Shown here one piece after another: positions 6,793 through 63,675 of a stretch of DNA of 64,000 nucleotides. This stretch comes from an uncultured Candidatus Rokubacteria bacterium (GTDB taxonomy: Bacteria; Methylomirabilota; Methylomirabilia; Rokubacteriales; CSP1-6): assembly GCA_963762145.1 (NCBI GenBank), contig CAVXJS010000014.1, forward strand, positions 576,001-640,000. Reading direction: 5' to 3'. The notes under the pieces were generated by a model. It had not been told where the DNA came from and ran no database searches. It saw only the letters and a list, made by a program, of their open reading frames with translations. The position numbers were made by a program, and so were the translations under genes. Each line of letters starts with the position of its first letter. Within the stretch, counting starts at the first letter, position 1.

Positions 6793-7311
6793 ATGGCGCG
6801 CATGCAGCCGCTTCCGATGCACGAGCTCGATGACGAGATCCGGCATATGTGCGAGGAGTCGGAGGCGCAGATCGGGACCTCGGCGAGCACGCGGACCTAC
6901 GCCCGGAACCCCGCGGTGGTGAAGGCGCTGGCCGCGTTCCGCGGGGCGCTCGTACGCGAGGGGACCATCGACCCGGTCATCCGCGAGCTGGTGCGGATCA
7001 AGATCGCGGGGCTCAACGCCTGTCGCTACTGACTCAAGGCGCGCTATGCCGGGGCCCGGCATGCGGGAGCGACCGAGGAGAAGATCGCGGCCATCAACGA
7101 CGAGACCTCCGAGCTCCTCACCCCGCGCGAGCGGGCCGCCGTCCGCTTCGCCGAGAAGCTCGCGGTGGATCACCAGAAGGTGGATGACGCGCTCTGGGCC
7201 GAGCTGCGCGCCCAGTTCTCCGAGGCCGAGGTGATCGAGCTGGTCGCGCACACCACGCTCTACATCGGCTTCGGCCGCTTCAACGAGATCGTCGGAATCG
7301 ACCCCGCCTAG
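6793..7311 (+). CDS. AhpD/carboxymuconolactone decarboxylase-family protein, putative selenoprotein (CxxU, UGA at 7030-7032)
   Basis: AAGGAGG RBS. RELVRIKIAGLNAC-R-Y-[TGA] continues in frame as LKARYAGARHAGATEEKIAAI...RERAAVRFAEKL...FSEAEVIELV...GFGRFN to TAG 7309-7311, giving a complete 172-aa AhpD-like protein. Hairpin at +13. Confidence 0.85.
7045..7063 (+). promoter_or_regulatory. Putative bacterial SECIS hairpin
   Basis: UAUGCCG-GGGCC-CGGCAUG: 7-bp stem (closing U-G wobble) from +13 to +31 after the UGA, G-containing loop. Confidence 0.65.
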
Positions 7312-8792
7312 TGCCGGGCGCCCGGCGTCTCGTCCTCGTCTTCGTGGTGGACGGGCTCCGGCCCGACGCCATCACCGCCGAGGACACGCCCACCCTCTTC
7401 CGCCTGCGCGCGGAGGGGGTGGACCTGGTGAACAGCCATGCGGTCTTTCCCACCGTGACCCGGGTCAACGCGGCGGCGATCGCCACCGGGACGCAGCCGG
7501 GCACGAACGGTCTGGTGGGCAACCAGATGTTCGTGCCCGCGGTGGACGCGCGGCGCGCCTTCGATACCGGCAACTACCGCAATCTCCAGGCGCTCGGGCA
7601 GGCGCTCGAGCAGGCCCCCGGCGGCCGTGTCCTGCACGTGCCGACGCTCGCCGAGCGGCTCCACGCCCGCGGGCTCGCGCTGGCCGGCGTCAGCTCCGGC
7701 TCGACGGGCAGCGCGTTCCTGCTGAATCCGGAGTCGCGCCACGGGGTGGGCGCCCTCGTCAACGGCTACCTCGATCCGGGCAAGACGGTGGCCTATCCGG
7801 CCGCGGTCAGCGAGGCGATCCTGGCCCGCTTCGGGCCCGCGCCGGTGAAGCCGCCGGGCGGCGCGCGCTTCGACGCGGCGGTCAACTGGACGCAGCGGGT
7901 GCTGCGCGAGTACGTGCTCCCCGAGCTCGCGCCCGCGGTGGTCATCAACTGGCTCACCGAGCCCGACCACAGCCAGCACCACGTGGGGGTGGGCTCGCCC
8001 GCCGCGCGCGAGGCGCTCCGCAACAGCGACCGGGAGCTCGCGGGGGTGCTGGCCGGGCTCGACGCCGCCTCGACCAGCGTGCTCGTGGTCTCCGACCACG
8101 GGTTCACGACCAATACCGCCGGGGTGGACGTGGCGGGCGCGCTGGTCCTGGCCAAGCTGAAGGCGGCGCCCGATTCCCTCGACGTGATCCTGGCCAGCAG
8201 CGGCCAGGCCGTCGCCCTCCACGTGCCGGACCACGATCCCGACCGGATCGCGCGCCTGGCCCGCTTCGTCCAGGCCCAGGACTGGGGCGGGGTGGTCTTC
8301 GCGGCCGCACCCGTGGACGGCGCCTTCCCGCTCGAGCTGATCAACCTGGCGAACCACGAGCGCGGCCCCGATCTGCTCTTCACATTCCCGTGGACGTCCC
8401 GGCGCGGCGCCTTCGGGGTGCCCGGCACCGATCTCGCGGCGGTGAGCGCGGGCGGGGCGCCGTACGTCAGCGACCACGGCAGCATGAGCCCGTGGAACGT
8501 GCGCAACACGTTCCTGGCGTGGGGGGCGGGCGTGAAGCGGGGCATCACCGCGTCCGCGCCGGCCGGCAACGCGGACGTGACGCCGACCGTGCTCGCCCTC
8601 CTCGGTCAGGACGGCGAGACCGGCCTGGACGGCCGCGCGGTCACCGAGGCCCTCGAGGGCGGGCCCGACCCGGAGCAGGTCGCGGCGGAGACCCGCATCC
8701 ACACCACGTCGGCGGGCACCTATCGCGCCGCGCTGCAGATCTCGACGGTGGACGGCCGCCGCTACGTGGACAAGAGCTGGCGCGTCAGCTGA
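7311..8792 (+). CDS. Alkaline phosphatase superfamily protein (type I phosphodiesterase/NPP-like)
   Basis: VVDGLRPD, FPTVTRVN (Thr nucleophile), EPDHSQH, VSDHG and DHG metal motifs. Confidence 0.85.
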   Translation: MPGARRLVLVFVVDGLRPDAITAEDTPTLFRLRAEGVDLVNSHAVFPTVTRVNAAAIATGTQPGTNGLVGNQMFVPAVDARRAFDTGNYRNLQALGQALEQAPGGRVLHVPTLAERLHARGLALAGVSSGSTGSAFLLNPESRHGVGALVNGYLDPGKTVAYPAAVSEAILARFGPAPVKPPGGARFDAAVNWTQRVLREYVLPELAPAVVINWLTEPDHSQHHVGVGSPAAREALRNSDRELAGVLAGLDAASTSVLVVSDHGFTTNTAGVDVAGALVLAKLKAAPDSLDVILASSGQAVALHVPDHDPDRIARLARFVQAQDWGGVVFAAAPVDGAFPLELINLANHERGPDLLFTFPWTSRRGAFGVPGTDLAAVSAGGAPYVSDHGSMSPWNVRNTFLAWGAGVKRGITASAPAGNADVTPTVLALLGQDGETGLDGRAVTEALEGGPDPEQVAAETRIHTTSAGTYRAALQISTVDGRRYVDKSWRVS

Positions 8793-9666
8793 CCTGCGCC
8801 ACCGTCGGCCGGTCGCCCGCCAGGGTGGTCCGGCGCACGTCGCGCGGCTCGTGCTCGGGGAAGGGCCGCGCGCGGTGCATGGTCTGCCGGTTGTCCCACA
8901 TCACGAGGTCGCCGACCTGCCACCGGTGCGAGTAGACGAACTGCCGCTGGGTGGCGTGCTCGATCAGGTCGCGCAGGAAGGCGCGCGCCTCCGGCACCGG
9001 CCAGCCGATGATGCCGCCGGCGTGTGACGAGAGGTACAGCGACTTGCGCCCGGTCACCGGGTGGGTGCGCACCAGCACCTGGCGCACCGGGGCGAAGCGC
9101 GCGCGCTCCTGATCGGTGAAGTCGGTGAAGCCCAGGATCTGGCGCGAGTAGATCTGGGAGTGCTCGCAGATGAGCCCCTCGCACGCGGCCTGCGTCTCCG
9201 GATCGAGGCTGTCCCACCCGGCCCGCATGTCCGCGAACTCGGTGTTGCCGCCGCGCGACGGGATGCTGTGGGCGTGCAGCAGCGAGTACTTCGCGGGGGT
9301 CGGCTTGAACGAGCTGTCGGAGTGCCAGAGCCGGTTGCCGAGCGCGAAGAGCCGCGTGCGGTTGTCCCGCTCGAACACCCGGTCGTTCTTGTCGAGGTTC
9401 GACACGTCCGCGAACGTGGTGGGGATCCGGTAGCCGTTGGCCTCGCGCAGACCCGTATCGATCGCCTGCTCGATCGGGCCCAGCGCGAGGGTGAAGGCCA
9501 TCTGCTGTTCGAGGGTCACGGGCCGCCCGTGGAAGACGAGCACCGCGTAGCGATCCATGCCCGCGTGAATGGCCGCCGCGTCCTCCGGGGAAAGGGGCGT
9601 GGCGAGGTCGATGCCGTCGACCTCGCCGGCGAAGCAGGGTCCGACCTGTCGGATCGCGATGGCCAT
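8785..9666 (-). CDS. TauD/TfdA-family 2-oxoglutarate/Fe(II) dioxygenase (TfdA-like)
   Basis: LWHSDSSF, GGNTEFADMR, HPVTGRKSLYLSSH and WDNRQTMHR motifs; start MAIAIRQ at 9666. Confidence 0.9.
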   Translation of the reverse strand: MAIAIRQVGPCFAGEVDGIDLATPLSPEDAAAIHAGMDRYAVLVFHGRPVTLEQQMAFTLALGPIEQAIDTGLREANGYRIPTTFADVSNLDKNDRVFERDNRTRLFALGNRLWHSDSSFKPTPAKYSLLHAHSIPSRGGNTEFADMRAGWDSLDPETQAACEGLICEHSQIYSRQILGFTDFTDQERARFAPVRQVLVRTHPVTGRKSLYLSSHAGGIIGWPVPEARAFLRDLIEHATQRQFVYSHRWQVGDLVMWDNRQTMHRARPFPEHEPRDVRRTTLAGDRPTVAQVS

Positions 9667-10139
9667 CAGCGTTTCTCCGCGGGAGTCGAGGTCGCGGGGC
9701 CCATGCCCCAGACCTGGATGATGGTTTCCTCGGCCTTGGCGCCGTCGTAGTGCACCTTGTTGGCGTAGTGGACGACGTAGCTGCCCGCCGGCGCGGGCAC
9801 CGTGGCCTCCGGGTCGAATGTCTCGCCGGTGCCCATCCACCAGGTGCCGGAGAGCACCACGAAGAAGCGGTCGTTCGGATGGAAGTGGGGCCGGCTCATG
9901 TTCCCGGGCAGCCACTTGAGCCGCACCACGTACGGACCGGGCTTGCTCGGGTCGCCGAAGAGCACCGCGGACTCGTTGGTGCCCGCCGCGTTGCGCACCC
10001 ACTTGATCTCGGCGGGCGTCTTCCAGTCCACCGCGGAGCGGTCGATGTCGGGCGCGCCGTGGCTCCCGGGCACGATCACCACGATCAGCAGGAGCAGGGC
10101 GAGGACGGTCAGCGGCAGGACGCGGGTCGTTCGGCTCAT
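9666..10139 (-). CDS. Exported cupin-domain protein
   Basis: Signal peptide; GDPSKPGPYVVRLK, PHFHP and VHYDG cupin motifs. Confidence 0.8.
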   Translation of the reverse strand: MSRTTRVLPLTVLALLLLIVVIVPGSHGAPDIDRSAVDWKTPAEIKWVRNAAGTNESAVLFGDPSKPGPYVVRLKWLPGNMSRPHFHPNDRFFVVLSGTWWMGTGETFDPEATVPAPAGSYVVHYANKVHYDGAKAEETIIQVWGMGPATSTPAEKR

Positions 10140-10198
10140 ACCGTCTCCTTCGGGTTTGAGTGAGCCGCCAGCACGGACGGAGGTATGATGCGCCAATC

Positions 10199-11494
10199 AT
10201 GGCGGAGACACCAGCCCCCGTCCGCCCCGTCGAGCCGCTCACGCGGCCGTTCGACGGGGTGGTGGCGCTACCGGGCTCGAAGAGCTACAGCAATCGCGCG
10301 CTCCTGGTCGCGGCCCTGGCGCGCGGGCGCTCGGAGATCGCCCAGGCCCTCTGGTCCGACGACACGCGCTACATGCACCGGGCGCTCGAGGCGCTCGGGG
10401 TGCGGGTGACGGGCGACGAGGCGTCCCGCACCTTCGTGGTCGAGGGCGTGGACGGCCGCTTCCCCGCCGCGGAGGCCACGCTCGACATCGGCAACGCGGG
10501 CACCGCGGCGCGCTTCCTGACCGCCGCCGTCGCCCTGGGGCAGGGGACCTTCGTGGTGGACGGCTCCCCCGCCATGCGCAAGCGCCCGATCCAGCCGCTC
10601 CTCGACGGCCTCCGCGCCCTCGGGGTGGACGCGGAGAGCCGCGAGGGGACCGGGTGCCCGCCGGTGGTGGTGCGCGCCGCGGGCATCGCGGGCGGCCACG
10701 CCCGCATGCGGGGCGACATCTCGAGCCAGTACTTCAGCGCGCTCCTGCTCGCCGCGCCCTACGCGCGCCACGACGTGGAGATCGAGGTGGAGGGCGAGCT
10801 GGTCTCGGCGCCCTACGTCACGATGACGCTGTCCACCATGGAGGCCTTCGGGGTGCGGGCCGTGCGGGAAGGCGACCGGCGCTTCCGCGTCCCGGCCGGG
10901 CAGCGCTACCAGGGCCGCGTGTACGCGGTGGAGCCCGACGCCTCGGCGGCCTCGTACTTCTTCGCGGCCGCGGCGGTGACGGGCAGCCGCGTGGTGGTGC
11001 CCCGGCTCGGCACCGACTCCGCGCAGGGCGACCTCGGCCTGGTGGACGTGCTCGCGCGGATGGGCTGCGAGGTCACGGTGGCGCTCGACACCGTCACGGT
11101 GCGGGGCCCCGCGCAGCTGCGCGCGGTCGACGCCGACTTCACCCGGATGGGCGACGTGGCGACCACCCTGATGGCCATCGCGCCCTTCGCGGACGGGCCG
11201 GTGACGGTGCGCGGGATCGCCCAGACCCACTTCGAGGAGAGCGACCGGCCGGTCGCCGCCGCCACCGAGCTGCGGCGCATGGGGATCCAGGTCGAGAGCG
11301 AGTGGGATTCGGTCACCATCCATCCCGGCACGCCCCGGCCCGCCGACGTGCAGACCTACGACGACCACCGCATCGCGATGAGCTTCGCGGTGACCGGCCT
11401 GCGCGCGCCGGGCATCCGCATCGTCAACCCGGCCTGCGTGTCCAAGACGTTCCCGGAGTACTTCGACGTGCTGCGCGGGCTGACCCACGGCTGA
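10199..11494 (+). CDS. aroA: 3-phosphoshikimate 1-carboxyvinyltransferase (EPSP synthase) family, with a divergent motif
   Basis: PGSKSYSNRAL, GNAGTAAR, SSQY, EPDAS, DDHRIAMSF and CVSKTFP motifs; the KE(T/S)DR motif reads EESDR. Confidence 0.85.
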   Translation: MAETPAPVRPVEPLTRPFDGVVALPGSKSYSNRALLVAALARGRSEIAQALWSDDTRYMHRALEALGVRVTGDEASRTFVVEGVDGRFPAAEATLDIGNAGTAARFLTAAVALGQGTFVVDGSPAMRKRPIQPLLDGLRALGVDAESREGTGCPPVVVRAAGIAGGHARMRGDISSQYFSALLLAAPYARHDVEIEVEGELVSAPYVTMTLSTMEAFGVRAVREGDRRFRVPAGQRYQGRVYAVEPDASAASYFFAAAAVTGSRVVVPRLGTDSAQGDLGLVDVLARMGCEVTVALDTVTVRGPAQLRAVDADFTRMGDVATTLMAIAPFADGPVTVRGIAQTHFEESDRPVAAATELRRMGIQVESEWDSVTIHPGTPRPADVQTYDDHRIAMSFAVTGLRAPGIRIVNPACVSKTFPEYFDVLRGLTHG

Positions 11495-11516
11495 TCACCC
11501 CAGAGAGGAGCGCGCC

Positions 11517-12065
11517 ATGCCACGCGTCACCCCCATCACCGGTAAAGCGGATGTTCCCGCCGCCCACCACGGCGTCGTGGACCAGGTCGTGAAGGTCTTC
11601 GGCGGCGTGCGCGGGCCGTTCAGCATGCTGCTGCACAGCCCGCCGCTCGCGGAGCGTCTGCTGCCCCTGGTCACGTTCTTCCGCGACGAGAGCTCGGTCG
11701 AGGGCAAGCTCCGCTCGGTGGCCATCCTGGCCGCGGTGCGGGAGCGCGAGGCGGCCTACGTCTGGTCGGCCCAGACCGCGCAGGCGCGGCGCAACGGGGT
11801 GAGCGAGGCGACCATCGACGTGCTGCGCGCCCGGGGCGACGCGGCCGCCCTCCCCGCCGACGAGCGCGACATCGTGGTCTACGTCCGGCAGCTCATGCGC
11901 ACCAACAAGGTGGAGCAGGCGGCCTTCGACGCGCTGGCGCGGCGGCACGACCCCCGGTGGATGGTGGAGATGACGGCGGCCGCGAGCTACTTCGCGATGC
12001 TGTGCGGAGTGGTCAACGCCTTCGAGGTGGCGGCCCCGCCCGACGGCGACAAGCTCCCGGCCTGA
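11517..12065 (+). CDS. Carboxymuconolactone decarboxylase-family protein (no CxxC)
   Basis: GPFSMLLHSP...LRSVAILAAVRE...YVWSAQ...ARRNGVSEA pattern; AGGAG RBS. Confidence 0.8.
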   Translation: MPRVTPITGKADVPAAHHGVVDQVVKVFGGVRGPFSMLLHSPPLAERLLPLVTFFRDESSVEGKLRSVAILAAVREREAAYVWSAQTAQARRNGVSEATIDVLRARGDAAALPADERDIVVYVRQLMRTNKVEQAAFDALARRHDPRWMVEMTAAASYFAMLCGVVNAFEVAAPPDGDKLPA

Positions 12066-12079
12066 CCGGGGCCGGACCC

Positions 12080-13144
12080 GTGGATCGCCTGCGGCTGGCC
12101 ATCGTCGGATGCGGCAACATCTCGCGGCTCAACGCGCCCGGCTATCTCCAGCACCCGCGCTGCGATGTGGTGGCGCTCTGCGACCCGGTGCCCGACCGGG
12201 CGAAGCGGCGGGCCGGCGAGTGGGGGATCACGCCGCGGCTGTACACCGACTTCGCGCAGGCGCTGGAAGACCCCGCGGTGGACGCGGTCGAGCTGCTCAC
12301 CCCCACCTGGATGCACGCGGACCAGATCGTGGCCGCGCTCGGCGCGGGCAAGCACGTGTCGTGTCAGAAGCCCCTCGCGATCACGGTGGCGGAGGCGGAC
12401 CGGATCGTGGCGGCGGTGGCCCGGGCGCGCACCACGTTTCGCGTCACCGAGAACTTCCTCTACTACCCGCCCATCGTGAAGGCCAAGGCGCTGCTCGACG
12501 CGGGCGCGATCGGCGAGCCGTCGCTCGTGCGGATCCACACCACGCGCGCCCAGCGCGTCGAGGGGATCACGCTCGACATGGAGCCGGACGCGATGGTCTG
12601 GCGCCGGGACCCCTCGCGCAATCCGGGGGGTGTCCTGTTCGACGACGGCGTGCACAAGTACGGCACCGCGGCCTACTGGATCGGCGAGATCGGCGAGGTC
12701 TCGGCGATCGTCACGCGCGGGGCTGACTTCATCCTGGAGACGCCGAGCGTGGCCACGTGGCGCTTCAAGGACCGCGACTGCCTCGGGATCATGGACTACA
12801 CCCACGCGCCCGAGATGGTCATCCGGGGCCGCTACGTCCGGGTGGACGAGTTCTTCGAGATCCACGGCAGCCGCGGCATCATCTGGGTGACCCGCTGCAG
12901 CGGCGAGATGCTCGACCTGCCGCCGGTGCAGGTGATCCGCGGCACCGAGACCGTGAGCTACCAGGTGCCGATGGACTGGCGGCTCGGCTTCGACGGGGCG
13001 GCGGCGGACTTCGTGGACGGCGTGCTCGACGGACGCCAGCCGGCCCAGGACGTGCGGGCCGCCCGGCACATGCTGCAGGTGTCGCTCGCGATCTACGAGT
13101 CCGGGCGCACCGGCCACACCGTGCGCCCGGACTCCATCGTCTAG
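12080..13144 (+). CDS. Gfo/Idh/MocA-family oxidoreductase
   Basis: AIVGCGNIS, AGKHVSCQKP and GGVLFDDGVH motifs. Confidence 0.88.
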   Translation: MDRLRLAIVGCGNISRLNAPGYLQHPRCDVVALCDPVPDRAKRRAGEWGITPRLYTDFAQALEDPAVDAVELLTPTWMHADQIVAALGAGKHVSCQKPLAITVAEADRIVAAVARARTTFRVTENFLYYPPIVKAKALLDAGAIGEPSLVRIHTTRAQRVEGITLDMEPDAMVWRRDPSRNPGGVLFDDGVHKYGTAAYWIGEIGEVSAIVTRGADFILETPSVATWRFKDRDCLGIMDYTHAPEMVIRGRYVRVDEFFEIHGSRGIIWVTRCSGEMLDLPPVQVIRGTETVSYQVPMDWRLGFDGAAADFVDGVLDGRQPAQDVRAARHMLQVSLAIYESGRTGHTVRPDSIV

Positions 13145-13145
13145 C

Positions 13146-14450
13146 TCAGGCGGACGGCAGGGCCTCGTAGATCGCGCTCTCGAACTGTCCGTAGAGCCTG
13201 AGCGCGCGCTGATCGGCGAACGGCAGGATCTGGGTCATGATCAGCCCGGTGAGGCGCTTGGCGGGGTCGAGCCAGTAGTAGGTGTTGAAGATCCCGCCCC
13301 AGCTCACGGTGCCGGCGCTGCGGCCGTTCGGCCCGGGCTGGAGATTGAGCATGTAGCCGAGGCCCCAGCGGATCTGGGCCCCGGGGAAGAGATCCACGTC
13401 GTTGGACAGGCCCGGGTTCTGCGTCTTCATGATGCCGGCCGGGATGCTGCCGGTGTGGTTCTGCTGCATCAGCGCGATCGTCTCCGGCCGCAGGATGCGC
13501 GCGCCCTTCCAGGTCCCTCCGTGCAGCATCATCTGGAGGAACTCGATGTAGTCGCGGCCCGTCGAGTAGAGCGGGCCGCCGCCCGACCAGAACTCGCCCG
13601 CCACCGGCACCGCCTCGAGCGGCTGCGGCGCGAGGCTCCCGTCGGCCTGGCGCAGGTGGAGCCGGGCCTGGCGCGCGCGCTGCTCGGCCGAGGGCACGTA
13701 GCCGCTGTCCTTCATGCCGAGTGGCGCGAAGATCTTGTCCCGGAAGTAGGCGTCGAGCGGCTGGCCGCTGGTCGCCTCGACGAGCCGGCCGACCCAGTCG
13801 GTGTTGACGCCGTACTCCCAGCGCTCGCCCGGATCGAAGATCAGCGGCGTGCGGATCGACGCTACCTTGGCGGTCGCCCGCGCGGGCATGCCCGACGACT
13901 TGATGTAGCGCCCGGTGCTCGCGTCCCAGATGTCGTAGCTGAATCCGGCGGTGTGGGTGAGCAGGTGGCGCAGGGTGATCGGCCGCTTCGCGGGGCGGAG
14001 CTTCGGCGCGCCCGCGGCGTCGAAGCCCTCGAGCACCTGGGGCGAGCCCAGCGCGGGGTCGACGTTCGGCACCGGGTCCTCCAGCTTGAGCTTGCCCTGC
14101 TCGACGAGCTGCATCGCCGCGACCGAGGTGATCACCTTGGTCATGGACGCGATGCGGAAGACGGTATCCATCGTCATGGCGACCGCGCCCGGCTCCAGCA
14201 CGCGCGGGCCGAAGGCGCCCTCGTAGAGCACGCCCTTGTCGGTGGCCGCCATCGCGACGACTCCGGGCACTTCCTTGGCGTCGGCGGCCTGGCGGAGCAC
14301 GCCGTCGATGCGCGCGCGGGCCGGACCGGTGCTTCCTTGAGCGTGAGCGGGGCGGGACATCGTGGCGTCCCCCGCGCCGACGGTTACCGCGGCGGCAAGG
14401 GCGGCGGCTCCTTTCAGCAGGTCGCGGCGGGTGTGGGAACCTGGCGTCAT
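13146..14450 (-). CDS. Tat-exported serine hydrolase (beta-lactamase/esterase family)
   Basis: TRRDLLK Tat signal; FRIASMTK (SxxK), LLTHTAG, WEYG and WGG motifs. Confidence 0.88.
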   Translation of the reverse strand: MTPGSHTRRDLLKGAAALAAAVTVGAGDATMSRPAHAQGSTGPARARIDGVLRQAADAKEVPGVVAMAATDKGVLYEGAFGPRVLEPGAVAMTMDTVFRIASMTKVITSVAAMQLVEQGKLKLEDPVPNVDPALGSPQVLEGFDAAGAPKLRPAKRPITLRHLLTHTAGFSYDIWDASTGRYIKSSGMPARATAKVASIRTPLIFDPGERWEYGVNTDWVGRLVEATSGQPLDAYFRDKIFAPLGMKDSGYVPSAEQRARQARLHLRQADGSLAPQPLEAVPVAGEFWSGGGPLYSTGRDYIEFLQMMLHGGTWKGARILRPETIALMQQNHTGSIPAGIMKTQNPGLSNDVDLFPGAQIRWGLGYMLNLQPGPNGRSAGTVSWGGIFNTYYWLDPAKRLTGLIMTQILPFADQRALRLYGQFESAIYEALPSA

Positions 14451-14479
14451 TGCTCTCTCCTCTTCCGGGTCCGGACGGT

Positions 14480-15271: not shown

Positions 15272-15343
15272 GGCGCGTGTTATACCACCAAAGCCTGTGA
15301 TACGCTTCAGCGCCGGACATTCTTTTACCGACGAGGTGTGACG

Positions 15344-16111: not shown

Positions 16112-16154
16112 CGGACTCGGCCGTGACCCGAAGTGACCCCTGAGAGGCGAGTCC

Positions 16155-53881: not shown

Positions 53882-53903
53882 GCTGGGCTATAGTCGAGAA
53901 GGC

Positions 53904-55154: not shown

Positions 55155-55164
55155 CGCCCGGGCC

Positions 55165-56751
55165 TCACCGGCCCAGCGCGAAGCCCGCGTAGCCCCTGGC
55201 CGCCACCTCGTCGCACTTCTGGCGGTAGACCCCGACGCCCCCGATGTAGGGCATGAACACGCGCGGCTTGCCCGGGATGTTCGCGCCCATGTACCAGGAC
55301 GGGGCGAGCGGGTAGAGCGTCATGTGGCCCACCTCGTTGACGTGCTGGACCCACGCCTCCTGGGCCTCCGCGGTCGCCTCGATGGTCGAGAGGCCGCGCT
55401 CGCGCAGGTGGGTGACGCAGTCGGCGATCCAGTCCACGTGCTGCTCGATCGACACGATCATGTTGCTCAGCACCGACGGGCTGCCGGGGCCGGTGATCAT
55501 GAAGAGGTTCGGGAAGCCCTCGACGGTGAGCCCGAGGTAGGTGCGCGGCCCGCCGGCCCACTCGGCGGCGAGCTTCCGGCCGCCGCGCCCGCGGATGTCG
55601 ATGTTGAGCAGCGCGCCGGTCATCGCGTCGAAGCCGGTGGCGAAGACCAGGTCGTCCACCGCGTACTCGACGCCGGCCACCCGCACGCCCTTCGGAGTGA
55701 TCGCCTCGACCGGGTTCTTCTTGACGTCCACCAGCGTCACGTTGTCGCGGTTGAACGTGTCGTAGTAGCCGGTGTCCACGCAGAGCCGCTTGGTGCCGAG
55801 CGGGTAGTGCTGCGGGCACAGGAGATCGGCCACCGCCGGGTCGCGCACGATCGCGCGGATCTTCTCGCGGAAGAACCGGGCCGCGGTGTCGTTGGCCTCC
55901 TTGCTGATGAGCAGATCGGTGTAGGCGGCGGAGAAGCCGAGGCCGCCCCGGCGCCAGCGCTTCTCGTACTCGCGCTCCCGCTCCTCGGCCGGCACCGCCA
56001 GCGCGGAGTCGCCGCTCCGCTCGGTCACGAAGCCGACGCGGGACTCGCGGGCCTGGCGGCGGAAGTCGGCGTAGCCGGCCTTCACGCGGCGCTCGTACTC
56101 CGGATCGAGCGGCGCGTTCTGGGCCGGCATGCTGAAGTTGGGCGTGCGCTGGAACACGTAGAGGTGGCTCGCCTGCTTCGCGATGAGGGGGATCGACTGG
56201 ATCGCGGAGGAGCCGGTGCCGATGACGCCGACCCGGCGGCCGGTGAAGTCCACGCCCTCGTGCGGCCACTTGCCGGTGTGGTACCACTTGCCCGCGAAGC
56301 TTCCGAAGCCCTCGATGTCGGGCACCTGCGCGTCCGACAGGCACCCGGTGGCCATGATGCAGAAGCGCGCGGTCACCCGGTCGCCCCGGTCGGTCTCGAC
56401 CGTCCAGCGGCCGGTCCCCTCGTCGAACCCGGCGGAGGTCACGCGGGTCTCGAACTGGATGTCCCGGCGGAGATCGAAGCGGTCGGCGACGTGGTTGGCG
56501 TACTTCAAGATCTCGGGCTGGGCCGCGTAGCGCTCGGTCCAGCGCCACTCCTGCTGCAGCTCGTCCGAGAACGAGTACGAGTAGTCCATGCTCTCGACGT
56601 CGCAGCGCGCGCCGGGGTAGCGGTTCCAGTACCAGGTGCCGCCGACTCCCTTGCCCGCCTCGTAGACGCGCGCGGTGAGCCCGAGCCCGCGCAGGCGATG
56701 GAGCATGTAGAGCCCGGCGAATCCCGCGCCGACGATCACCGCGTCGACCAT
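55165..56751 (-). CDS. Baeyer-Villiger monooxygenase (cyclohexanone/phenylacetone MO-like)
   Basis: GAGFAG, GGTWYWNRYPGARCD, FxGxxxHxxxW fingerprint (FAGKWYHTGKW), GTGSS and ATGFD motifs. Confidence 0.95.
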   Translation of the reverse strand: MVDAVIVGAGFAGLYMLHRLRGLGLTARVYEAGKGVGGTWYWNRYPGARCDVESMDYSYSFSDELQQEWRWTERYAAQPEILKYANHVADRFDLRRDIQFETRVTSAGFDEGTGRWTVETDRGDRVTARFCIMATGCLSDAQVPDIEGFGSFAGKWYHTGKWPHEGVDFTGRRVGVIGTGSSAIQSIPLIAKQASHLYVFQRTPNFSMPAQNAPLDPEYERRVKAGYADFRRQARESRVGFVTERSGDSALAVPAEEREREYEKRWRRGGLGFSAAYTDLLISKEANDTAARFFREKIRAIVRDPAVADLLCPQHYPLGTKRLCVDTGYYDTFNRDNVTLVDVKKNPVEAITPKGVRVAGVEYAVDDLVFATGFDAMTGALLNIDIRGRGGRKLAAEWAGGPRTYLGLTVEGFPNLFMITGPGSPSVLSNMIVSIEQHVDWIADCVTHLRERGLSTIEATAEAQEAWVQHVNEVGHMTLYPLAPSWYMGANIPGKPRVFMPYIGGVGVYRQKCDEVAARGYAGFALGR

Positions 56752-58058
56752 CACGCCTCCTCGTGTACCGGCACCACGTAGGGCCCCTCGGGGACGAAGG
56801 CCACGCGGGGATCCCGGTGCCGCGCCATGCTGTCCGCGATCGCGCCGGCCAGATCGGTCACGCGCTCGACGCCGGTCAGGGCCGCGTCGCGCGCGTCGAG
56901 GCCGTCGGTGTAGAGCCGCACGCGGCCGACCCGCATGGGCTTGAGCTGCATCTGGGTCTGCCACTCGTCGATGTCGGCGTGGGGCTTCCCGGCGATGCTC
57001 GACGCGAAGCCGTCCGCGCCGAGGTCCACGAGACGGCGCTGCGCTTCCACGTAGTGCCTGGACCCCATGCCCTCCGAGCACGCGGACGCCACGATGAGGT
57101 CGCCGCCCGGCGCCAGGATGTCGAGGGGGCCGACCATGCCCTTGACGGTCTGGTAGTACGTCTTGTCGAGCGGATAGCCGGCCGCGCTGGTGACCACGGT
57201 CTGGAACCGGCGGCCCACCGGCACGCGCGCGTAGGCGCTCGCGAAGTCGACCGCCCCGAGATGGCTCTGGACCACCTCGCCGAAGTTGACGAAGGCCAGG
57301 CGCCGCCGGTCGTCGATCACGGTGTTGAGCGCGAGCGCGCCGCCGAGCATTCCCATGATGGCGAGCTGCTCCTCGTGGAGCGGGTTGCCGTCCAGCACGC
57401 AGTTGGCCGCGCGCGGGTGCGCCATGAACGCCGCGTTGTGGAACGTGGTGATGGTCTCGGCGTGCGCCACGCCGGGCGCGATGACCTTGCGCCCGCCCGA
57501 CCAGCCGGCCATGAAGTGCGGCTCCACCAGGCCGGTGGCGATGCGGAGCTCGGCCTCGACGAAGCGGCGGTCGAGGCGGACCACCGTGCCGCGGACCGGC
57601 GTGCGGCCGAGCAGCACGTGGTCCCGGTCGGCGCGCGCGTCGTGGTTGGCGACCGTCACCGTCTCGAGCACCCACGGCTCGCCCACCAGCTCGGCCAGCT
57701 CCGCGCCCTCGCTCGGGCGGTGGAGCCCCGTCGCGACCAGGACCGTGATGCCCGCGCGCGGCACGCCCGCGGCCAGCAGGGTGCGGATCAGCGCGGGCAG
57801 GAACAGGCCGTTCGGGACCGGCCGGGTGATGTCGCAGATGAGGATGCAGGCGGAGCGCTTACCGCGGGCGGCCTCGCGCAGCGACGGCCCGCCGACCGGC
57901 TCGGCCAGGGCGTCCTCCACCGCGGCGAGCGGATCGGCCAGCACCGGCATGGCGCGCTTCTCGATCACCGTCGGCACGCAGCCGTCGGGCGGCCGGACGG
58001 GCAGGGTAGAGCGGCCGTACAGGAGGTCGATCGTCACCGGGAGCCTCCCCGCGATCAT
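56751..58058 (-). CDS. larA: Nickel-pincer lactate racemase (LarA) family protein
   Basis: DITRP, ATGLHR, NHD, EPHFMAGWSGGRK and GYPLD..YQTVKG motifs. Confidence 0.85.
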   Translation of the reverse strand: MIAGRLPVTIDLLYGRSTLPVRPPDGCVPTVIEKRAMPVLADPLAAVEDALAEPVGGPSLREAARGKRSACILICDITRPVPNGLFLPALIRTLLAAGVPRAGITVLVATGLHRPSEGAELAELVGEPWVLETVTVANHDARADRDHVLLGRTPVRGTVVRLDRRFVEAELRIATGLVEPHFMAGWSGGRKVIAPGVAHAETITTFHNAAFMAHPRAANCVLDGNPLHEEQLAIMGMLGGALALNTVIDDRRRLAFVNFGEVVQSHLGAVDFASAYARVPVGRRFQTVVTSAAGYPLDKTYYQTVKGMVGPLDILAPGGDLIVASACSEGMGSRHYVEAQRRLVDLGADGFASSIAGKPHADIDEWQTQMQLKPMRVGRVRLYTDGLDARDAALTGVERVTDLAGAIADSMARHRDPRVAFVPEGPYVVPVHEEA

Positions 58059-59508
58059 AGCTCATCCCCGACGCCCACAGGTGCTGCGCGGCGTACGCGC
58101 GCCACGGCCGCCAGCGCTCGGCGCGCGCGAGCAGCGCGACCGGCGTCGGCCGGCGACCCTTCCGGTCGGCCATCGCGCGCATCAGGCCGAGATCGGCGGC
58201 GGGGAACGCATCGGGCTCGCGCATCTCGCGGATCGCGATGTACTGCGCGGTCCACTCGCCGATGCCCGGGAGCGCGCGCAGCTTCACGATCGCCTCCTCG
58301 AGGCTCCGCCGGGGACCGAAGATCTGCGGGTCGGCCACCACCGCGCGCGCCAGCCCACCGAGGGCGGCGGCGCGCGCCCGGGTCAGGCCGAGGCTCGAGA
58401 GGTCGGCGTCGGCCAGCCGCTCCGCGCCGGGAAAGACGTGGCTGAGCCCCTCGCCGCCGCCGGCCAGCGGCTTGCCATAGGCCGCCACCAGCCGGCCCGC
58501 GAGCGTGGCCGCGCCGGCCACTGTGATCTGCTGGCCGAGCAGGGCGCGCACCGCGAGCTCGAAGCCGTCCCACGCGCCCGCCACGCGCAGGCCCGGCCGC
58601 GCCGCCACCAGCGGGGCCAGACGCGGGTCCTCGGACAGGTGCGCGCCGATCACCTCCGGGTCGGCGACCAGGTCGAACACGCGCCGGAGCCGCGCGACGA
58701 TGGTGGGCAGCGCGGAGAGCTGCGGGAACTGGATCGTGGCGCGGAGCGCGTTCCCCGCCGCCGGCCGCACCGCCACCGTGCCGTGCGCCCCGGCGACCTC
58801 GATCGTCCGGGTGTAGCTGTCGCGCGTCACCACCTCGACCCCGGGGATCGCGCGGGCCCGCAGGAACGCGAGCATGGCCGGCCAGTCGTAGGGCGGGCGA
58901 TAGGGGAGGAGGATCGCGACTTCCCCGGTCGGGCCGGGCGAGGCCGTCCCGGGCCCGCGCCGCAGCGTGCTCGGTGCCCGGCCGAAGAGATGCTGAAAGG
59001 TCTCGTTGAACCGGCGGATGCTGCCGAAGCCGGCGGCCAGCGCGACCTCCGACATCGGCAGGCGCGTCTCGTGGATCAGGTGCTTGGCCAGGAGCACCCG
59101 CCGGGTCTGCGCGACCGCGACGGGCGAGGCGCCCAGATGCCGGCGGAAGAGCCGCCGGAGCTGCCGCTCGCCCACGCCGAGCCGCTCGGCGAGCGCCTCC
59201 ACGTCGGCGCCGTCGAGCCCGCCCTTCTCGATCAGCGCGAGCGCCCGCGAGACCGTGTTCGACGTGCCGCGCCACACGCCCAGGTCCGGCGCGCTCTCGG
59301 GCCGGCAGCGCAGGCAGGGGCGGTAGCCCGCCTCCTGGGCGGCCGCGGCCGAGGGATAGAACGTGAGGTTCTCCCGCTTCGGGGTCCGCGCGGGGCAGAT
59401 GGGCCGGCAATAGATGCCGGTGGACTTCACCGCGATGAAGAGCCGTCCATCGAAGCGGGCATCGCGCGTGGCGATGGCCCGGTAGCAGGCGTCGGCGTCC
59501 AGGTCCAT
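58055..59508 (-). CDS. alkA: Ada/AlkA bifunctional regulator / DNA-3-methyladenine glycosylase
   Basis: TGIYCRPIC, RPCLRC, AraC HTH, RALLGQQIT, LPGIGEWTA and WRPWRAYA motifs. The ORF as assembled runs to 57859; a missing base near 58067 would stop it at 58055 with an ATGA overlap on larA. Confidence 0.85.
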
Positions 59509-59630
59509 GGGCTGATCATCACGCACGAGCGGCCCGGCTGTCTCGCGGTTTTCGGCCATCATCGGTGCGGGTCGGTGATGGGGGCCGGATCCCGCCAGCG
59601 GGCCCTGGCCCCCTCTGCGATGATCTGGCC

Positions 59631-60203
59631 ATGGCCACGACCGATGTGCTCTGGGCCGCATGGGAGGGCCGGGGGTTCGAGCATCTCGCGCTCCGGCAGG
59701 AGGCGGGCGCGGTGCGGGCGGACAGCCTCATCATCGCGGTGGACGAAGACCACCGGCCCTTCCGCGCGCGCTACGTCGTGGAGTGCGACGGCGGCTGGGC
59801 GGTGAGGCGGGCGCGCATCGACGTGCTCGAGGAGCCGGAGCGGAGCCTCGAGATCCGGGGGGACGGTCGTGGCGGCTGGACCGATGCCGCGACCGGCTCG
59901 CCGCTGCCGCTCGACGGCTGCGTCGACATCGACATCTACCCGTCGCCCTTCACCAACACGCTGCCGATCCGGCGGCTCGTCGATGCCGTCCCCGGGCGCG
60001 CGGTGGCGATCGACGTCGCGTGGGTCCTGCTGCCCGCGCTCACCATCGAGGCGAAGCCCCAGGAGTACACGCTGCTCGAGCGTCGCGGCCCCGGCTCGCT
60101 CTGGCGCTTCCGGGGACTCGATTCGGACTTCACCGCGGATCTGGCGGTGGACGGCAACGGGCTCGTGCTCGACTACCCGGGGATCGCGCGGCGGGTGCTC
60201 TAG
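59631..60203 (+). CDS. Putative glycolipid-binding domain protein (DUF1089-like)
   Basis: LDGCVDIDI..SPFTNTLPIRR, QEYT and VDGNGLVLDYPG motifs. Confidence 0.82.
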   Translation: MATTDVLWAAWEGRGFEHLALRQEAGAVRADSLIIAVDEDHRPFRARYVVECDGGWAVRRARIDVLEEPERSLEIRGDGRGGWTDAATGSPLPLDGCVDIDIYPSPFTNTLPIRRLVDAVPGRAVAIDVAWVLLPALTIEAKPQEYTLLERRGPGSLWRFRGLDSDFTADLAVDGNGLVLDYPGIARRVL

Positions 60204-60228
60204 CGGAGACCACCCCTCACTTTCACCG

Positions 60229-60262
60229 CCCCTCACCCTGCCCTCTCCCATGAGGGGAGAGG
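60229..60262. repeat. Single family B palindrome
   Basis: CCCCTCACCCTGCCCTCTCCC-ATGAG-GGGAGAGG. Confidence 0.8.
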
Positions 60263-60281
60263 AAGATTTGGAGGTACGACC

Positions 60282-60677
60282 ATGGCGTCGATCAGGCGAG
60301 AGATGCAGGTCAACGCGCGGCCCGAGAAGATCTGGGAGGCGGTGCGGGACGTGGGCGCGGTGCACGAGCGCCTGGCGCCCGGCTTCGTGGTGGACACGAA
60401 GATGGAGGAAGGCGCCCGCGTCGTCACCTTCGCGAACGGGATGATCGCGCGCGAGCTCATCGTGGACGTGGACGACGCGGCGCGCCGCCTCGTCTGGTCG
60501 GTGGTGGGCAGCCCGCGGCTCACCCACCACAATGCCTCGCTGCAGGTCGCGGCCGAAAGGGACGGCGGGAGCCGCGTCGTCTGGATCGCGGACCTGCTGC
60601 CGAACGAGGTCGCCGGCTACATCCAGGCGATGATCGAGCAGGGGATGGCGGTCATGAAGAAGACCCTGGAGCGGTAG
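60282..60677 (+). CDS. SRPBCC (polyketide cyclase/dehydrase) family protein
   Basis: IWEAVRDVG..H.RLAPGFV, RVVTFANG and HHNAS motifs; GGAGG RBS. Confidence 0.85.
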   Translation: MASIRREMQVNARPEKIWEAVRDVGAVHERLAPGFVVDTKMEEGARVVTFANGMIARELIVDVDDAARRLVWSVVGSPRLTHHNASLQVAAERDGGSRVVWIADLLPNEVAGYIQAMIEQGMAVMKKTLER

Positions 60678-61758
60678 CCAGGGGCGGCAGCCCCATCTCT
60701 CGCGTGCACTCGCCGAACCACTCGATCACTTCCTTGTGGAGCGGGATGCCGTGGGCCCGGCGCTCCGCCAGCTCCTCGGCCTCGGACAGCCCCGGGTAGA
60801 GCACGCGCTCCTGGCCCGGCGCGGGCGCGGCGGTGCGCAGGGTGCGGAGCATCTCGTCCATCGTGTCCTTGAAGCGCCCGAGGTCGGTGAAGGCCTCGAT
60901 GTTGTAGGCCGCGAACTGGTTCTTGGACCCGCTGCCCGGCGCCAGCATGGTCGGCAGCGCGCCCGCCAGCATGGTGGCGAGCACCTCGGCCATGAGCGCG
61001 AAGCCGTAGCCCTTGTGCGAGCCCTGCTCGCGGGTGCCGCCGAGGGGAGCCTGGTAGACGTCCTCGCGATCGAAGAGGGGCTTCTCCTCCATGATCGGCG
61101 TGCCCTCCTTGTCGGTCACCCAGCCCGCGAGCAGCGGCGAGCCGATGCGCATGGCGAGCCGGATCTTGTTGCCCGCGATCGCGGAGGTGGCCGCGTCGAA
61201 GAGCATCGGCGCCTCGTGGCGCGCGGGCGCGGCGAGCGCGATCGGATTGGTGCCGAGCAGGGGCTTGGCCCCGAAGGTCGGCACCACGTGCAGGCCCGCG
61301 GCGGTGAAGCAGGCGCCCACCATGTCGGCCTGGGCGGCCTGCATCGCGAAGTGGCCGATCGCGCCGAAGTGCCCGCTGTTGTGCACCGTCACGATCCCGA
61401 CGCCGACCTTGCGCGCCTTCTCGATCGCCAGCCGCATCGCCTTCGGCCCCACGATGATACCGAGGCGCTTGCCCGCGTCGATCACCGCGGTGCCGGGCGC
61501 CTCGCGCTCGATCGTCCAGCCCGGCCGCGGGTCGAGCTTGCCGGCCCGGTAGTCGCGGACGTAAGCGCGGAGCATGTTCGACACCCCGTGGGTCTCGACC
61601 CCGCGCAGGTCGGTCATGGTCAGCACGTCCGCTGCGTCGGCGGCGTCCTCCGGCGTGACGCCGAGCGTCTCGAAGATCTGGGTGGTGGTCCGGCGCAGCG
61701 ACGCTTCCGAGACCAGCACCTGGTCCTGCGGCGGAACCTTGAAGCGCTCGAGGATCAT
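60652..61758 (-). CDS. Ldh_2-family (malate/lactate/ureidoglycolate dehydrogenase-like) oxidoreductase
   Basis: DLRGVETHG, NSGHFG, GTNPIA, FDAATS, HKGYG and VLYPG motifs. Confidence 0.9.
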   Translation of the reverse strand: MILERFKVPPQDQVLVSEASLRRTTTQIFETLGVTPEDAADAADVLTMTDLRGVETHGVSNMLRAYVRDYRAGKLDPRPGWTIEREAPGTAVIDAGKRLGIIVGPKAMRLAIEKARKVGVGIVTVHNSGHFGAIGHFAMQAAQADMVGACFTAAGLHVVPTFGAKPLLGTNPIALAAPARHEAPMLFDAATSAIAGNKIRLAMRIGSPLLAGWVTDKEGTPIMEEKPLFDREDVYQAPLGGTREQGSHKGYGFALMAEVLATMLAGALPTMLAPGSGSKNQFAAYNIEAFTDLGRFKDTMDEMLRTLRTAAPAPGQERVLYPGLSEAEELAERRAHGIPLHKEVIEWFGECTREMGLPPLATAPGSSS

Positions 61759-61795
61759 GGGTCGTCCCTCCCGGCTGCATCCTAACCGAGTTTAT

Positions 61796-61826
61796 TCTTG
61801 ACCGATCGTTCAAGATTGGCTATCGT
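61796..61826 (+). promoter_or_regulatory. Sigma70 promoter overlapped by a 20-bp palindromic operator (probable TetR site)
   Basis: TCTTGACCGATCGTTCAAGA (61796-61815, one mismatched pair); TTGACC(61798)-N17-TATCGT(61821); ATG 8 nt later. Confidence 0.7.
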
Positions 61827-61834
61827 CGCCCGCG

Positions 61835-62452
61835 ATGCCGCGCCAGAAGGAGTTCGACCGGGAGGCGGCGCTGGACCGCGCGATGAGCGCGTTCTGGAGC
61901 AACGGGTACGCCGCGACGTCCGTCGAAGACCTGGTGGCCCAAATGGGCATCCAGCGAGGAAGCCTCTACGCCACCTTCGGCGACAAGCGGTCGCTGTTCC
62001 TCAGCACGCTCGACCGCTACCAGCGGGTGGTCACCCGCGAGCTCTTCGAGGTGCTCGAGGCGCCCGGGTCCGGGCTCGAGGCGATTCGGCGGTTCTTCCG
62101 CCTCCGGGTGGAGGCGGCGCTGGACCGGAGCCGGCCGGCGGGATGCCTGGTGACGAACTCGGCGGTCGAGCTGTCGCGGCGCGATCGCGGTGCGTCGGCC
62201 AAGGTGGGCGGCTCGATGGCCGGGCTCGAGGCGGCCTTCCTCCGGGCGCTCGAGCGGGCCCGCGCCCGGGGGGAGTTGGCCGCCGGCCGGGACTTGCGGG
62301 CCTTGGCCCGATTCCTGACCAGCAGCGCCCAGGGCCTCTCGGTGATGGCCAAGGCCTTCCCGGAGCGCCCGGTGCTCCAGGATGTGGTCGCGGTCGTCCT
62401 GACTGCGATCGAGGCCGGGCGGCCGGGGCCCCGTCGGAAGCGGGCGCGGTGA
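61835..62452 (+). CDS. TetR-family regulator (NemR/ComR-like)
   Basis: MPRQKEFDRE...FWSNGY..TS...GIQRGSLYATFGDK HTH; GCLVTN motif. Confidence 0.92.
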   Translation: MPRQKEFDREAALDRAMSAFWSNGYAATSVEDLVAQMGIQRGSLYATFGDKRSLFLSTLDRYQRVVTRELFEVLEAPGSGLEAIRRFFRLRVEAALDRSRPAGCLVTNSAVELSRRDRGASAKVGGSMAGLEAAFLRALERARARGELAAGRDLRALARFLTSSAQGLSVMAKAFPERPVLQDVVAVVLTAIEAGRPGPRRKRAR

Positions 62453-62501
62453 TCACGTGAGAGGGGAGCTCGCCGCTCGGCGGTGCGCGTGAGGAGACGC
62501 C

Positions 62502-63155
62502 ATGTCACTCGAGGAAAAGCTCGCCGCGATCCGGGAGATGGCCAAGACCCGCCAGCCACCGGAGGTGCGCGCGGTCATGCAGAAGGCGACCGAGGATCTG
62601 CGCGCCTCCGGGATCATGGACCGCGTCGTCAAGGTCGGTGCGCCCGCCCCCGACTTCACGCTGCCCAACATGGCGGGCCAGCCAGTGAGCCTGGCCGTTC
62701 TTCGGGCGCGCGGCCCGGTCGTGCTGTCCTTCTATCGCGGCCGGTGGTGACCCTACTGCAACGCAGAGCTGGACGCTCTGCAGCAGGCTCTGCCCGAGAT
62801 CGCCGCTGCCGGCGCCTCGCTCGTCGTGGTGTCGCCCCAGGTGACCCGCACCACGCGAGAGACGGACGAGCCCCGGCCCATGACCTGCGAGGTGCTGCGC
62901 GATCTCGGCAATCGCGTGGCCGCGGAGTACGGGCTCGTCTTCACGTTGCCGGAGGCGCTGCAGCCCATCTACACCAAGTTCGGCATCGACCTGCCCCGGG
63001 GCAATGGGGACGGCACCTGGCGCCTGCCGGTGCCGGCTCGCTTCGTCATCGACCGGGAGGGCATCATCCGCGCGGTCGACGCCGACCCCGACTACACGAG
63101 ACGGCCGGAGCCCGCCCAGACGGTGGAGGTCCTGCGCCGTCTGCAATCCCGCTGA
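62502..63155 (+). CDS. AhpC/TSA peroxiredoxin-like protein, putative selenoprotein (UxxC, UGA at 62748-62750)
   Basis: APDFTLPN...GPVVLSFYRGRW-[TGA]-PYCNAEL...LVVVSPQ...W.LPVPA.FVID..G.I...DPDYTRRPEP; 217 aa in one frame; the family consensus here is FYRGxWCPYC. Confidence 0.88.
62763..62781 (+). promoter_or_regulatory. Putative bacterial SECIS hairpin
   Basis: GCAGAGC-UGGAC-GCUCUGC, perfect 7-bp stem from +13 to +31 after the UGA; lower stem CUGC/GCAG. Confidence 0.7.
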
Positions 63156-63168
63156 GGAGGACGTCGCG

Positions 63169-63675
63169 ATGACCACGCCGTCAGGACTGGACCCGTCGAT
63201 CCGGAGCCGCGAGATGGTCTTCGAGGCGGACGTCACGGGAGTCACGCCGTTTCTCAAGCTGGCCACCGTGAGCCTCAACGGGGCCTCGCCGATGACCTTC
63301 GCCTGCGACGAGCCGCCGAGCCTCGGCGGCCTGGGCTCCGCGCCCACCCCGCTCATGTACTTCGCCGCTGCGCTCGCGTTCTGACTGATGACCCAGGTGT
63401 CCCGCTATGGACACATGCTGAAGGTCACGGTGACGCGGATGACCATGCACGTGAAGGCGAGCTTCCGGGTGACCGGCTCGGTCCTGGACGACACGATCGC
63501 CGGCGAGATGCTCGGCGCGGAGACCACGCTCGAGCTGGAGTCGCCCGACCCGCCGGACCGCGTGGCTCGGGTCGTGCGCAGCGCGGAGCGCGGGTGCTTC
63601 GTGATGCAGGCCCTGCTCCGGCCGGTGCCGGTGACCGGTCGGACGCTCCTCAACCGTGAGCCCCTGACGGGGTAA
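63169..63675 (+). CDS. OsmC/Ohr-family protein, putative selenoprotein (UGA at 63382-63384)
   Basis: AGGAGG RBS; CDEPPSLGG.GSAPTPLMYFAAALAF-[TGA]-LMTQ...AERGCFV; 168 aa in one frame; the TGA sits at the first catalytic Cys and the second Cys is retained. Confidence 0.85.
63397..63414 (+). promoter_or_regulatory. Putative bacterial SECIS hairpin
   Basis: GUGUCC-CGCUAU-GGACAC, 6-bp stem from +13 to +30 after the UGA; lower stem CAG/CUG. Confidence 0.6.

Follow-up and report, generated by a model that had tools for sequence, protein, structure and literature searches.

The stretch of DNA considered here, called the window below, comprises 64,000 nucleotides (G000:C14:576001-640000) of the metagenome-assembled genome (MAG) of a soil bacterium of the Rokubacteria, in GTDB the phylum Methylomirabilota. 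The MAG is 6.26 Mb in 25 contigs and has 70% GC and an estimated completeness of 88%. The window holds three predicted selenoprotein genes, all on the + strand, each with an in-frame TGA followed by a hairpin: an AhpD/carboxymuconolactone-decarboxylase-like gene (AhpD-like; 6793..7311), a gene for a peroxiredoxin-like thiol:disulfide oxidoreductase (Prx-like; 62502..63155) and an OsmC-related gene (OsmC-like; 63169..63675). A preliminary description, made from the sequence of the window, took them for the visible part of a hidden UGA-recoding system with a lineage-specific hairpin.

Three genes with an in-frame TGA

The AhpD-like gene codes for 172 aa. Its TGA at 7030..7032 is codon 80 and stands in the context N-A-C-R-Y-U-L-K, where U is the residue at the TGA; the motif is C-R-Y-U, with the putative selenocysteine (Sec) at the second position of a CxxC-type redox motif. 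The Pfam CMD domain (residues 40-121) is found across the TGA with 64.6 bits (cut-off 23), so that the protein has both the domain and the CxxU motif of the AhpD-like/CMD-like selenoprotein (PF02627). The candidate selenocysteine insertion sequence (SECIS) at 7045..7063 is a 7 bp stem, in which nucleotides +13..19 after the TGA pair with +25..31, with the loop GGGCC (UAUGCCG / GGGCC / CGGCAUG); an alternative fold has 8 bp and the loop GGC. The minimum free energy (MFE) of a 40-nt segment is -17.8 kcal/mol.

The Prx-like gene codes for 217 aa, and its true stop, at 63153-63155, is also TGA. The internal TGA at 62748..62750 is codon 83, the first position of UxxC in the motif W-U-P-Y-C (context R-G-R-W-U-P-Y-C-N), and the Pfam domain AhpC/TSA covers residues 45-191 across it with 94 bits (cut-off 26); domain and motif are those of the Prx-like thiol:disulfide oxidoreductase selenoprotein (PF00578). 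The hairpin at 62763..62781, GCAGAGC / UGGAC / GCUCUGC, has the same geometry as the preceding one, 7 bp with +13..19 paired to +25..31, the loop UGGAC and an MFE of -18.1 kcal/mol.

The OsmC-like gene codes for 168 aa. The TGA at 63382..63384, codon 72, gives the motif U-L-M-T in the context A-L-A-F-U-L-M-T, and a second Cys is residue 152. Pfam OsmC is found across the TGA with 53.6 bits (residues 55-156), and the curated NCBIfam model OsmC_like_Se (NF041052, "OsmC-related (seleno)protein") is reached with 161.4 bits (cut-off 95; residues 19-162), with Sec at the first active-site Cys (UxxT). The hairpin at 63397..63414, GUGUCC / CGCUAU / GGACAC, is a 6 bp stem of +13..18 paired to +25..30 with the 6-nt loop CGCUAU and an MFE of -10.6 kcal/mol. 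The Prx-like and OsmC-like genes probably form an operon, because the OsmC-like gene starts only 13 nt past the Prx-like gene. By match coordinates the pair is also adjacent in three relatives of the same genus (G013, G020, G005).

The preliminary description was right that the TGAs starting at 7030, 62748 and 63382 are in frame and that they stand where the redox Cys is expected: each lies inside a single Pfam domain, and homologues have either Cys or a further TGA at the aligned position. The paralogues in the same genome have, with X for another in-frame TGA, the residues XXXXXEC at the AhpD-like site, CTGCSCTCX at the Prx-like site and CCX at the OsmC-like site. Forty relatives, the closest of the same genus and the most distant of the same order, were searched as well. 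AhpD-like orthologues with 78-94% identity were found in 15 genomes of the same genus and all have TGA at the site, as have distant paralogues down to 27% identity. Altogether TGA was found in 29/29 aligned relatives and paralogues of the AhpD-like gene, and one TGA in 64 of the 73 matches listed. At the Prx-like site TGA stands in all 17 rows that cover it (18 rows listed), and at the OsmC-like site in 6/7 aligned rows (5 relatives), the seventh being a Cys form with 31% identity.

A trivial explanation would be that the TGAs are errors of sequencing or assembly, or pseudogenising mutations which have left the genes broken. The MAG is 88% complete, and two other in-frame TGAs of the genome, which align with Leu, may be real defects. 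At the three sites, however, TGA recurs at the same codon in dozens of genomes that were assembled independently, with protein identities as low as 34-38%; the in-frame coding signal continues on both sides, and each TGA lies within a single domain. Both TGAs of the operon are also covered by, and present in, contigs (X5, X8 and X10) which come from three independent soil studies. Neither the TGAs nor the stems have a listed variant in X8 and X10, although 22-25 differences are found elsewhere in these contigs; X9, from a fourth run, leaves the two operon TGAs uncovered. Because the TGAs are conserved in the relatives and in the independent contigs, we regard an error or a pseudogene as excluded; the probability left to it is negligible.

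The placement of the proteins in subfamilies is not equally firm. The AhpD-like protein stays below the NCBIfam cut-offs for NF053654 (YciW-related; 75.6 against 310 bits) and TIGR01926 (peroxidase-related; 59.4 against 81.8 bits), and since both curated cut-offs were missed it is not filed under either family; a paralogue at C9:213252 passes NF053654 with 336.5 bits. The Prx-like protein reaches no NCBIfam equivalog, the best score being 33.7 bits. As neither protein reaches an NCBIfam selenoprotein equivalog cut-off, their subfamily placement rests on Pfam and on the motifs.

The hairpin behind the TGA

The stems of 6-7 bp starting at +13, two of identical geometry and the third with a 6-nt loop, were found as they had been described, at 7045-7063, 62763-62781 and 63397-63414. 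Stem lengths are 7, 7 and 6 bp, and in all three genes 19 nt precede the loop and its first nucleotide is counted at +20. To judge such stems a background was needed. A codon-usage model was trained on 2361 long open reading frames (ORFs) of the genome, and the Sec set was made up of 27 TGAs which are flanked by coding sequence upstream and downstream and aligned with Cys or TGA in paralogues, i.e., the three window genes and 24 others. It was compared to 1446 true TGA stops, with a coding signal upstream but not downstream, and to 3988 in-frame Cys codons of the genome. A stem of at least 6 bp starting at +9..+14 was found in 3/3 window genes and 18/24 other Sec candidates, as compared to 131/1446 true stops and 321/3988 Cys codons. 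Thus 21/27 Sec-TGAs have such a stem, against 9% of the true TGA stops, and the hairpin is real and specific to the Sec-TGAs, beyond chance.

The exact position is another matter. A stem of at least 6 bp starting at exactly +13 is present in 3/3 window genes, in only 3/24 other Sec candidates, in 28/1446 true stops and in 51/3988 Cys codons. The claim that the hairpin starts "exactly at +13" therefore stands for the three window genes and fails as a rule for the genome; that these three share it is coincidence.

The hairpin was also followed across the Prx-like family. A scan of GTDB with the Prx-like protein, using one genome per species, gave 80 loci, 79 of which span the site; the codon is TGA in 41, TGC or TGT in 36 and something else in 2. 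A stem of at least 6 bp at +11..+14 follows the codon in 41/41 TGA forms and in 0/36 Cys forms. Among 29 distinct TGA-form sequences 99% of the cells in the stem alignment pair, whereas slid registers pair in 25-47% of cells. Compensatory double changes are seen at two of the 7 pairs (G-C to U-A or C-G; C-G to U-A), two further pairs vary via G-U, and the covariation score was matched by 0/500 shuffles. The comparison with relatives proposed in the preliminary description thus gave both a conserved TGA and, for the Prx-like gene, a covarying stem. The close orthologues of the AhpD-like and OsmC-like genes are too alike to inform on covariation; in distant members of both families the hairpin keeps its place while the sequence of the stem is unrelated. 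In the relatives of the OsmC-like gene the hairpin is kept, the upper stem differs and the loop is GUA.

It had also been suggested that this is a lineage-specific type of SECIS; a related reading would be a SelB geometry which demands a stem starting at exactly +13. The start at +13 in all three window genes speaks for this, and so does the narrow placement of the loop: by hand tally its first nucleotide lies at +17..+22 in 24/27 Sec candidates, towards the bottom of the general range of 16-37 nt. This is at variance with the stem starts in the genome, which span +9 to +15, with +20 and +28 also seen. The TGA forms of the Prx-like gene include records labelled Rokubacteria, Alpha-, Beta- and Gammaproteobacteria, and the proteobacterial homologues have the same +13 hairpin. 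By hand tally 25/26 hairpins have G at the first or second position of the loop, as in the general model. A lineage-specific element is improbable on this evidence, and the suggestion was not borne out.

The general model of the bacterial SECIS (bSECIS), as given in a 2026 review, has an apical loop of 3-9 nt, an upper stem of 4-16 bp, a G at loop position 1 or 2, a distance of 16-37 nt from the UGA to the loop and an MFE of -7.5 kcal/mol or lower (PMC13188914; the spacing also in PMC10778597). All three window hairpins agree with every one of these constraints. The archetype of canonical Sec insertion is found in the formate dehydrogenases of E. coli. The window genes share with it the in-frame UGA, the hairpin inside the ORF, G in the first two loop positions and the placement of the loop, here about 19-21 nt past the UGA, and the genome shares with it selA-selB with selC nearby, and selD. 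Nothing is different in principle; the stems are short here (6-9 bp), and neither a lower stem nor a bulged U is obvious. The minimal SECIS of E. coli fdhF lies about 11 nt past the UGA, so the spacing seen here is classical.

Reading of the UGA

A search for selA, selB, selC (UCA) and selD had been recommended as the first check, and the full set was found in the genome. SelA is encoded at C9:753893-754987 (500 bits), directly adjoining selB at C9:751777-753660 (363 bits, cut-off 242). About 1.6 kb from selA lies the gene for tRNA-Sec with the anticodon UCA, at C9:756629-756726 (Rfam RF01852, 69.3 bits, cut-off 47); according to ARAGORN the acceptor stem has 8 bp and the T stem 5 bp, the extra arm is long and the discriminator is G. 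There are two selD genes. One of them (341 bits) itself has an in-frame TGA, in the N-terminal motif AC-A-G-U-A-S-K, followed by an 8-bp hairpin with the loop GAUC. The second selD is of the Cys type. ARAGORN found no tRNA in the window, the tRNA-Sec being on another contig. A 94-nt "tRNA-?" with a 4-nt anticodon at C7:118997-119090 was discarded as a false positive (84% GC, poorly paired). It may be added that an AhpD-like CxxU selenoprotein gene (L155, C9:758657) lies about 2 kb from the locus with tRNA-Sec, selA and selB (C9:751777-756726).

The proposed mechanism follows the established Sel pathway. The tRNA-Sec would be charged with serine by SerRS, and SelA would then make Sec-tRNA-Sec from the Ser-tRNA, with selenophosphate supplied by SelD. 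SelB, bound to the SECIS just 3' of the UGA, would deliver Sec-tRNA-Sec to the paused ribosome. Sec would in this way replace the nucleophilic redox Cys in the AhpD/CMD-like protein (CxxU), in the Prx-like thioredoxin-fold protein (UxxC) and in the OsmC-like peroxidase (UxxT), and might give a more reactive peroxide- or disulfide-reducing centre than Cys does.

A change of the genetic code throughout the genome, for example of TGA to Trp or Gly, would be one alternative; it accounts for frames that are open when TGA is read through, and for nothing more. Among 1859 strong ORFs (at least 200 codons) the stop is TGA in 1065, TAG in 665 and TAA in 129. Because TGA is the commonest true stop (57%), there is no genome-wide code change. 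The preliminary description had already called TGA an ordinary stop elsewhere, and the ORF at 636-2708, which ends in TGA, and the stop of the Prx-like gene are examples from the window itself. Moreover, the homologues have Cys at the sites and not Trp or Gly, and only a few dozen TGAs in the genome combine coding sequence on both sides with support from homologues. The chance of a reassignment is vanishingly small.

The other alternative, raised together with the original claim, is that SelB delivers a tRNA-Cys resembling tRNA-Sec, which inserts cysteine at the UGA. Such tRNAs have been reported in some bacteria, and the evidence from the hairpins and from SelB would look identical. The genome has only one UCA tRNA among 68 found by ARAGORN, however, and it scores as tRNA-Sec in Rfam and folds as one. 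Its discriminator is G, whereas U is the identity element for CysRS, so by this element it does not group with the tRNAs of cysteine identity. The genome has also retained SelA and two SelD proteins, one encoded by a UGA gene itself, which would be pointless without the use of selenium. We consider insertion of Cys very unlikely.

We are thus left with selenocysteine, and it is highly probable, as judged from the genes, that the window holds three genuine selenoprotein genes of a Rokubacteria soil bacterium which are decoded via the canonical bacterial pathway; the reading of the UGA as Sec through SelB and a downstream SECIS, put forward in the preliminary description, is the part of it that held. 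Some points weigh against this conclusion. No RNA run is listed as containing the operon stretch. The AhpD-like and Prx-like proteins are, as described above, below every NCBIfam selenoprotein equivalog cut-off. Rfam at gathering thresholds gave no match in the whole window, so no curated family matches the hairpins; this search tests curated families only and is therefore silent on SECIS. Finally, the MAG has an estimated contamination of 5.4%, and the sel genes could in principle sit on foreign contigs. This last worry is weakened because selenoprotein genes with the same style of hairpin share contigs with selA, selB and selC (C9) and with selD (C11 and C14).

What is found in the window is known in kind: the mechanism, the three families and the large selenoproteome of the phylum are already described, and to read the three genes as a "hidden" or new recoding system is wrong. 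According to the review, the catalogued selenoprotein families include the Prx-like thiol:disulfide oxidoreductase (PF00578, UxxC), AhpD-like (TIGR01926, CxxU), CMD-like (PF02627, CxxU) and OsmC-like (PF02566, UxxT) proteins, in a table credited to Kryukov and Gladyshev 2004 and Zhang et al. 2005 (PMC13188914). These entries have the same Pfam domains and Sec motifs as the window proteins with WUPYC, CRYU and ULMT, and the OsmC-like family has, in addition, its curated NCBIfam model. Clustering of Prx-like genes in operons with other redox selenoprotein genes is also reported there (PMC13188914). The window differs in having an OsmC-like partner, behind a TetR gene; this pairing was not met in the text of the review that was available, and no dedicated search for it was made.

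The selenoproteome of the genome

The same review cites Deng et al. 2026 (Cell Rep) for a MAG of the Methylomirabilota whose 63 predicted selenoprotein genes set a new upper bound (PMC13188914). That MAG belongs to the same GTDB phylum as the present one and likewise has a very large selenoproteome; here a conservative count gives at least 33 genes in which a family match extends across the TGA, with 3 further, weaker candidates, from a MAG that is 88% complete. The unusually large selenoproteome proposed on the basis of three genes is thus confirmed, though it is not new for the phylum. The nearest public records to the window are titled Rokubacteria, Rokuibacteriota or Methylomirabilota. A full-text literature search for "Rokubacteria" together with "selenoprotein" gave a single paper, on another phylum. 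It should be noted that some of the nearest records carry titles of other phyla (L073, L074, L078 and L093: Limnocylindria, Deferrimicrobiaceae, Vicinamibacterales and Verrucomicrobiia). L073 shares coordinates with L056 (G020) and L074 with L057 (G001), both genomes of the genus of the window, and these are probably mislabelled MAG titles.

The number was obtained with a scan which required an open frame of at least 12 codons before the TGA and 15 after it, a coding score on both sides, and support from paralogues or families. An earlier scan with a 40-codon window missed the Prx-like gene and selD, and the criteria were loosened. The scan yielded 380 TGAs with a coding signal on both sides; the alignment of TGA against Cys over the genome, which the preliminary description had advised, backed 30 of these by Cys or TGA in paralogues. 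Further candidates were chosen by their hairpin, and 35 candidates were translated through the TGA and compared with NCBIfam and Pfam. Before the hairpin count K95 was dropped as a case of adjacent genes, and K89/K342 as two 41-aa frames with no family match. K223 and K269 were rejected, as their translation looked non-coding and matched no family.

The selenoproteome is dominated by thiol-peroxidase and other redox families together with an expanded UGSC family. Besides the 3 window genes it comprises 8 genes of the UGSC family (3 over the NF041046 cut-off), 6 further AhpD/CMD/YciW-like genes (one over the NF053654 cut-off), 4 peroxiredoxins, 2 PrdB-like genes, 2 TlpA/ResA-like genes (one of the WAxxUGC type) and 2 rhodaneses of C-x-U form. 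A second OsmC-like gene, a radical SAM gene with a CUAEP tail, MoeB, a formate dehydrogenase alpha subunit, a zinc-type dehydrogenase and SelD are represented by 1 gene each.

Gene callers which take TGA as a stop would split or truncate the three window genes and some thirty more in this genome, and such truncation understates the capacity for redox reactions and for dealing with oxidative stress in a widespread soil phylum. Selenoprotein-rich bacteria are described as mostly anaerobes in the review (PMC13188914). The result is one further Rokubacteria genome with a very large selenoproteome. Since mechanism and families are textbook knowledge or catalogued, nothing new on recoding follows from it.

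The UGSC (seleno)protein, a family of unknown function, is markedly expanded. The eight paralogues (L152, L163, L164, L165, L166, L167, L173 and L177, on contigs C7, C11, C14, C19 and C21) all have TGA in D-U-G-S/T-C. Seven of the 8 hairpins are similar, with 7-10 bp, the loop GUN and a start at +10..+13; L173 (K291) has a 6-bp stem from +20 with the loop GGUC.

One member of the list may be of a kind that the catalogues lack. It is a zinc-type medium-chain dehydrogenase with a TGA at L154:148-150 (G000:C9:387706-387708, + strand) in the motif R-A-C-G-V-U-G-T-D. The domains are ADH_N and ADH_zinc_N, and the best NCBIfam matches are scyllo-inosose and threonine dehydrogenases. The site, which we take to be the catalytic zinc-ligand Cys, is Cys in 16/20 paralogues. 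In the relatives (L190, L191) the TGA is kept in G011 (97% identity) and in G034 (84%, from another family), and a 5 bp hairpin with the loop GCCGAAG starting at +33 is unchanged in both; homologues at 58% identity have TGC. A Sec form of this enzyme is not mentioned in the main texts of PMC13188914, BSepDB and deep-Sep, and a literature search gave none; supplementary tables of the selenoprotein papers may list dehydrogenase, MerB-like or DUF411 forms. That the genome holds selenoprotein forms missing from the searchable catalogues, with the alcohol/threonine-dehydrogenase-like enzyme with C-G-V-U-G-T-D as the best case and the MerB-like and DUF411/CopG-like proteins, whose TGA falls on a position of a Cys motif, as weaker ones, is a tentative proposal, which we think rather less probable than its opposite. 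If true, the dehydrogenase would mean Sec as a metal ligand in a very large and well-studied enzyme family.

The three weaker candidates, all with hairpins downstream, are MerB-like (L184, C14:533939), DsrE-like (L183, C21:611844) and DUF411-type (L178, C11:562809). Pfam MerB is found with 58 bits across the TGA of the first, and the second has the motif H-V-U-G-A-C. The third, DUF411/CopG-like, has K-S-P-T-U-G-C-C; its Pfam domain stops short of spanning the TGA, and it counts as weak only.

A few other in-frame TGAs are of a different nature. L157 and L176 (C9:79249 and C21:210534) are 88%-identical frames of about 41 aa with TGA in G-P-P-D-U-P-S-E; they match no family, and a clear SECIS is absent. 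K315 and K320 (C21:986023 and C21:75245) are in-frame TGAs, one in the gene of an ABC-transporter ATPase and the other in a permease-like gene; in 40-56 paralogues the aligned residue is Leu, Ile or Met, not Cys. These alignments point to real defects (a pseudogene, a frameshift or an error of assembly) and not to Sec sites.

As to the surroundings of the window genes, the operon of the Prx-like and OsmC-like genes is directly preceded by a gene for a TetR-family regulator (61835..62452, + strand; Pfam TetR_N and TetR_C_13), which is given as context only. Downstream of the AhpD-like gene lies a type I phosphodiesterase gene (7311-8792), and upstream of it a gene for a molybdopterin large subunit of the aldehyde-oxidase/xanthine-dehydrogenase type (4119-6782). 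The product of the latter has a ThiS-like domain at its C-terminal end (Pfam ThiS 28.8 bits, residues 780-856), which is an unusual fusion.

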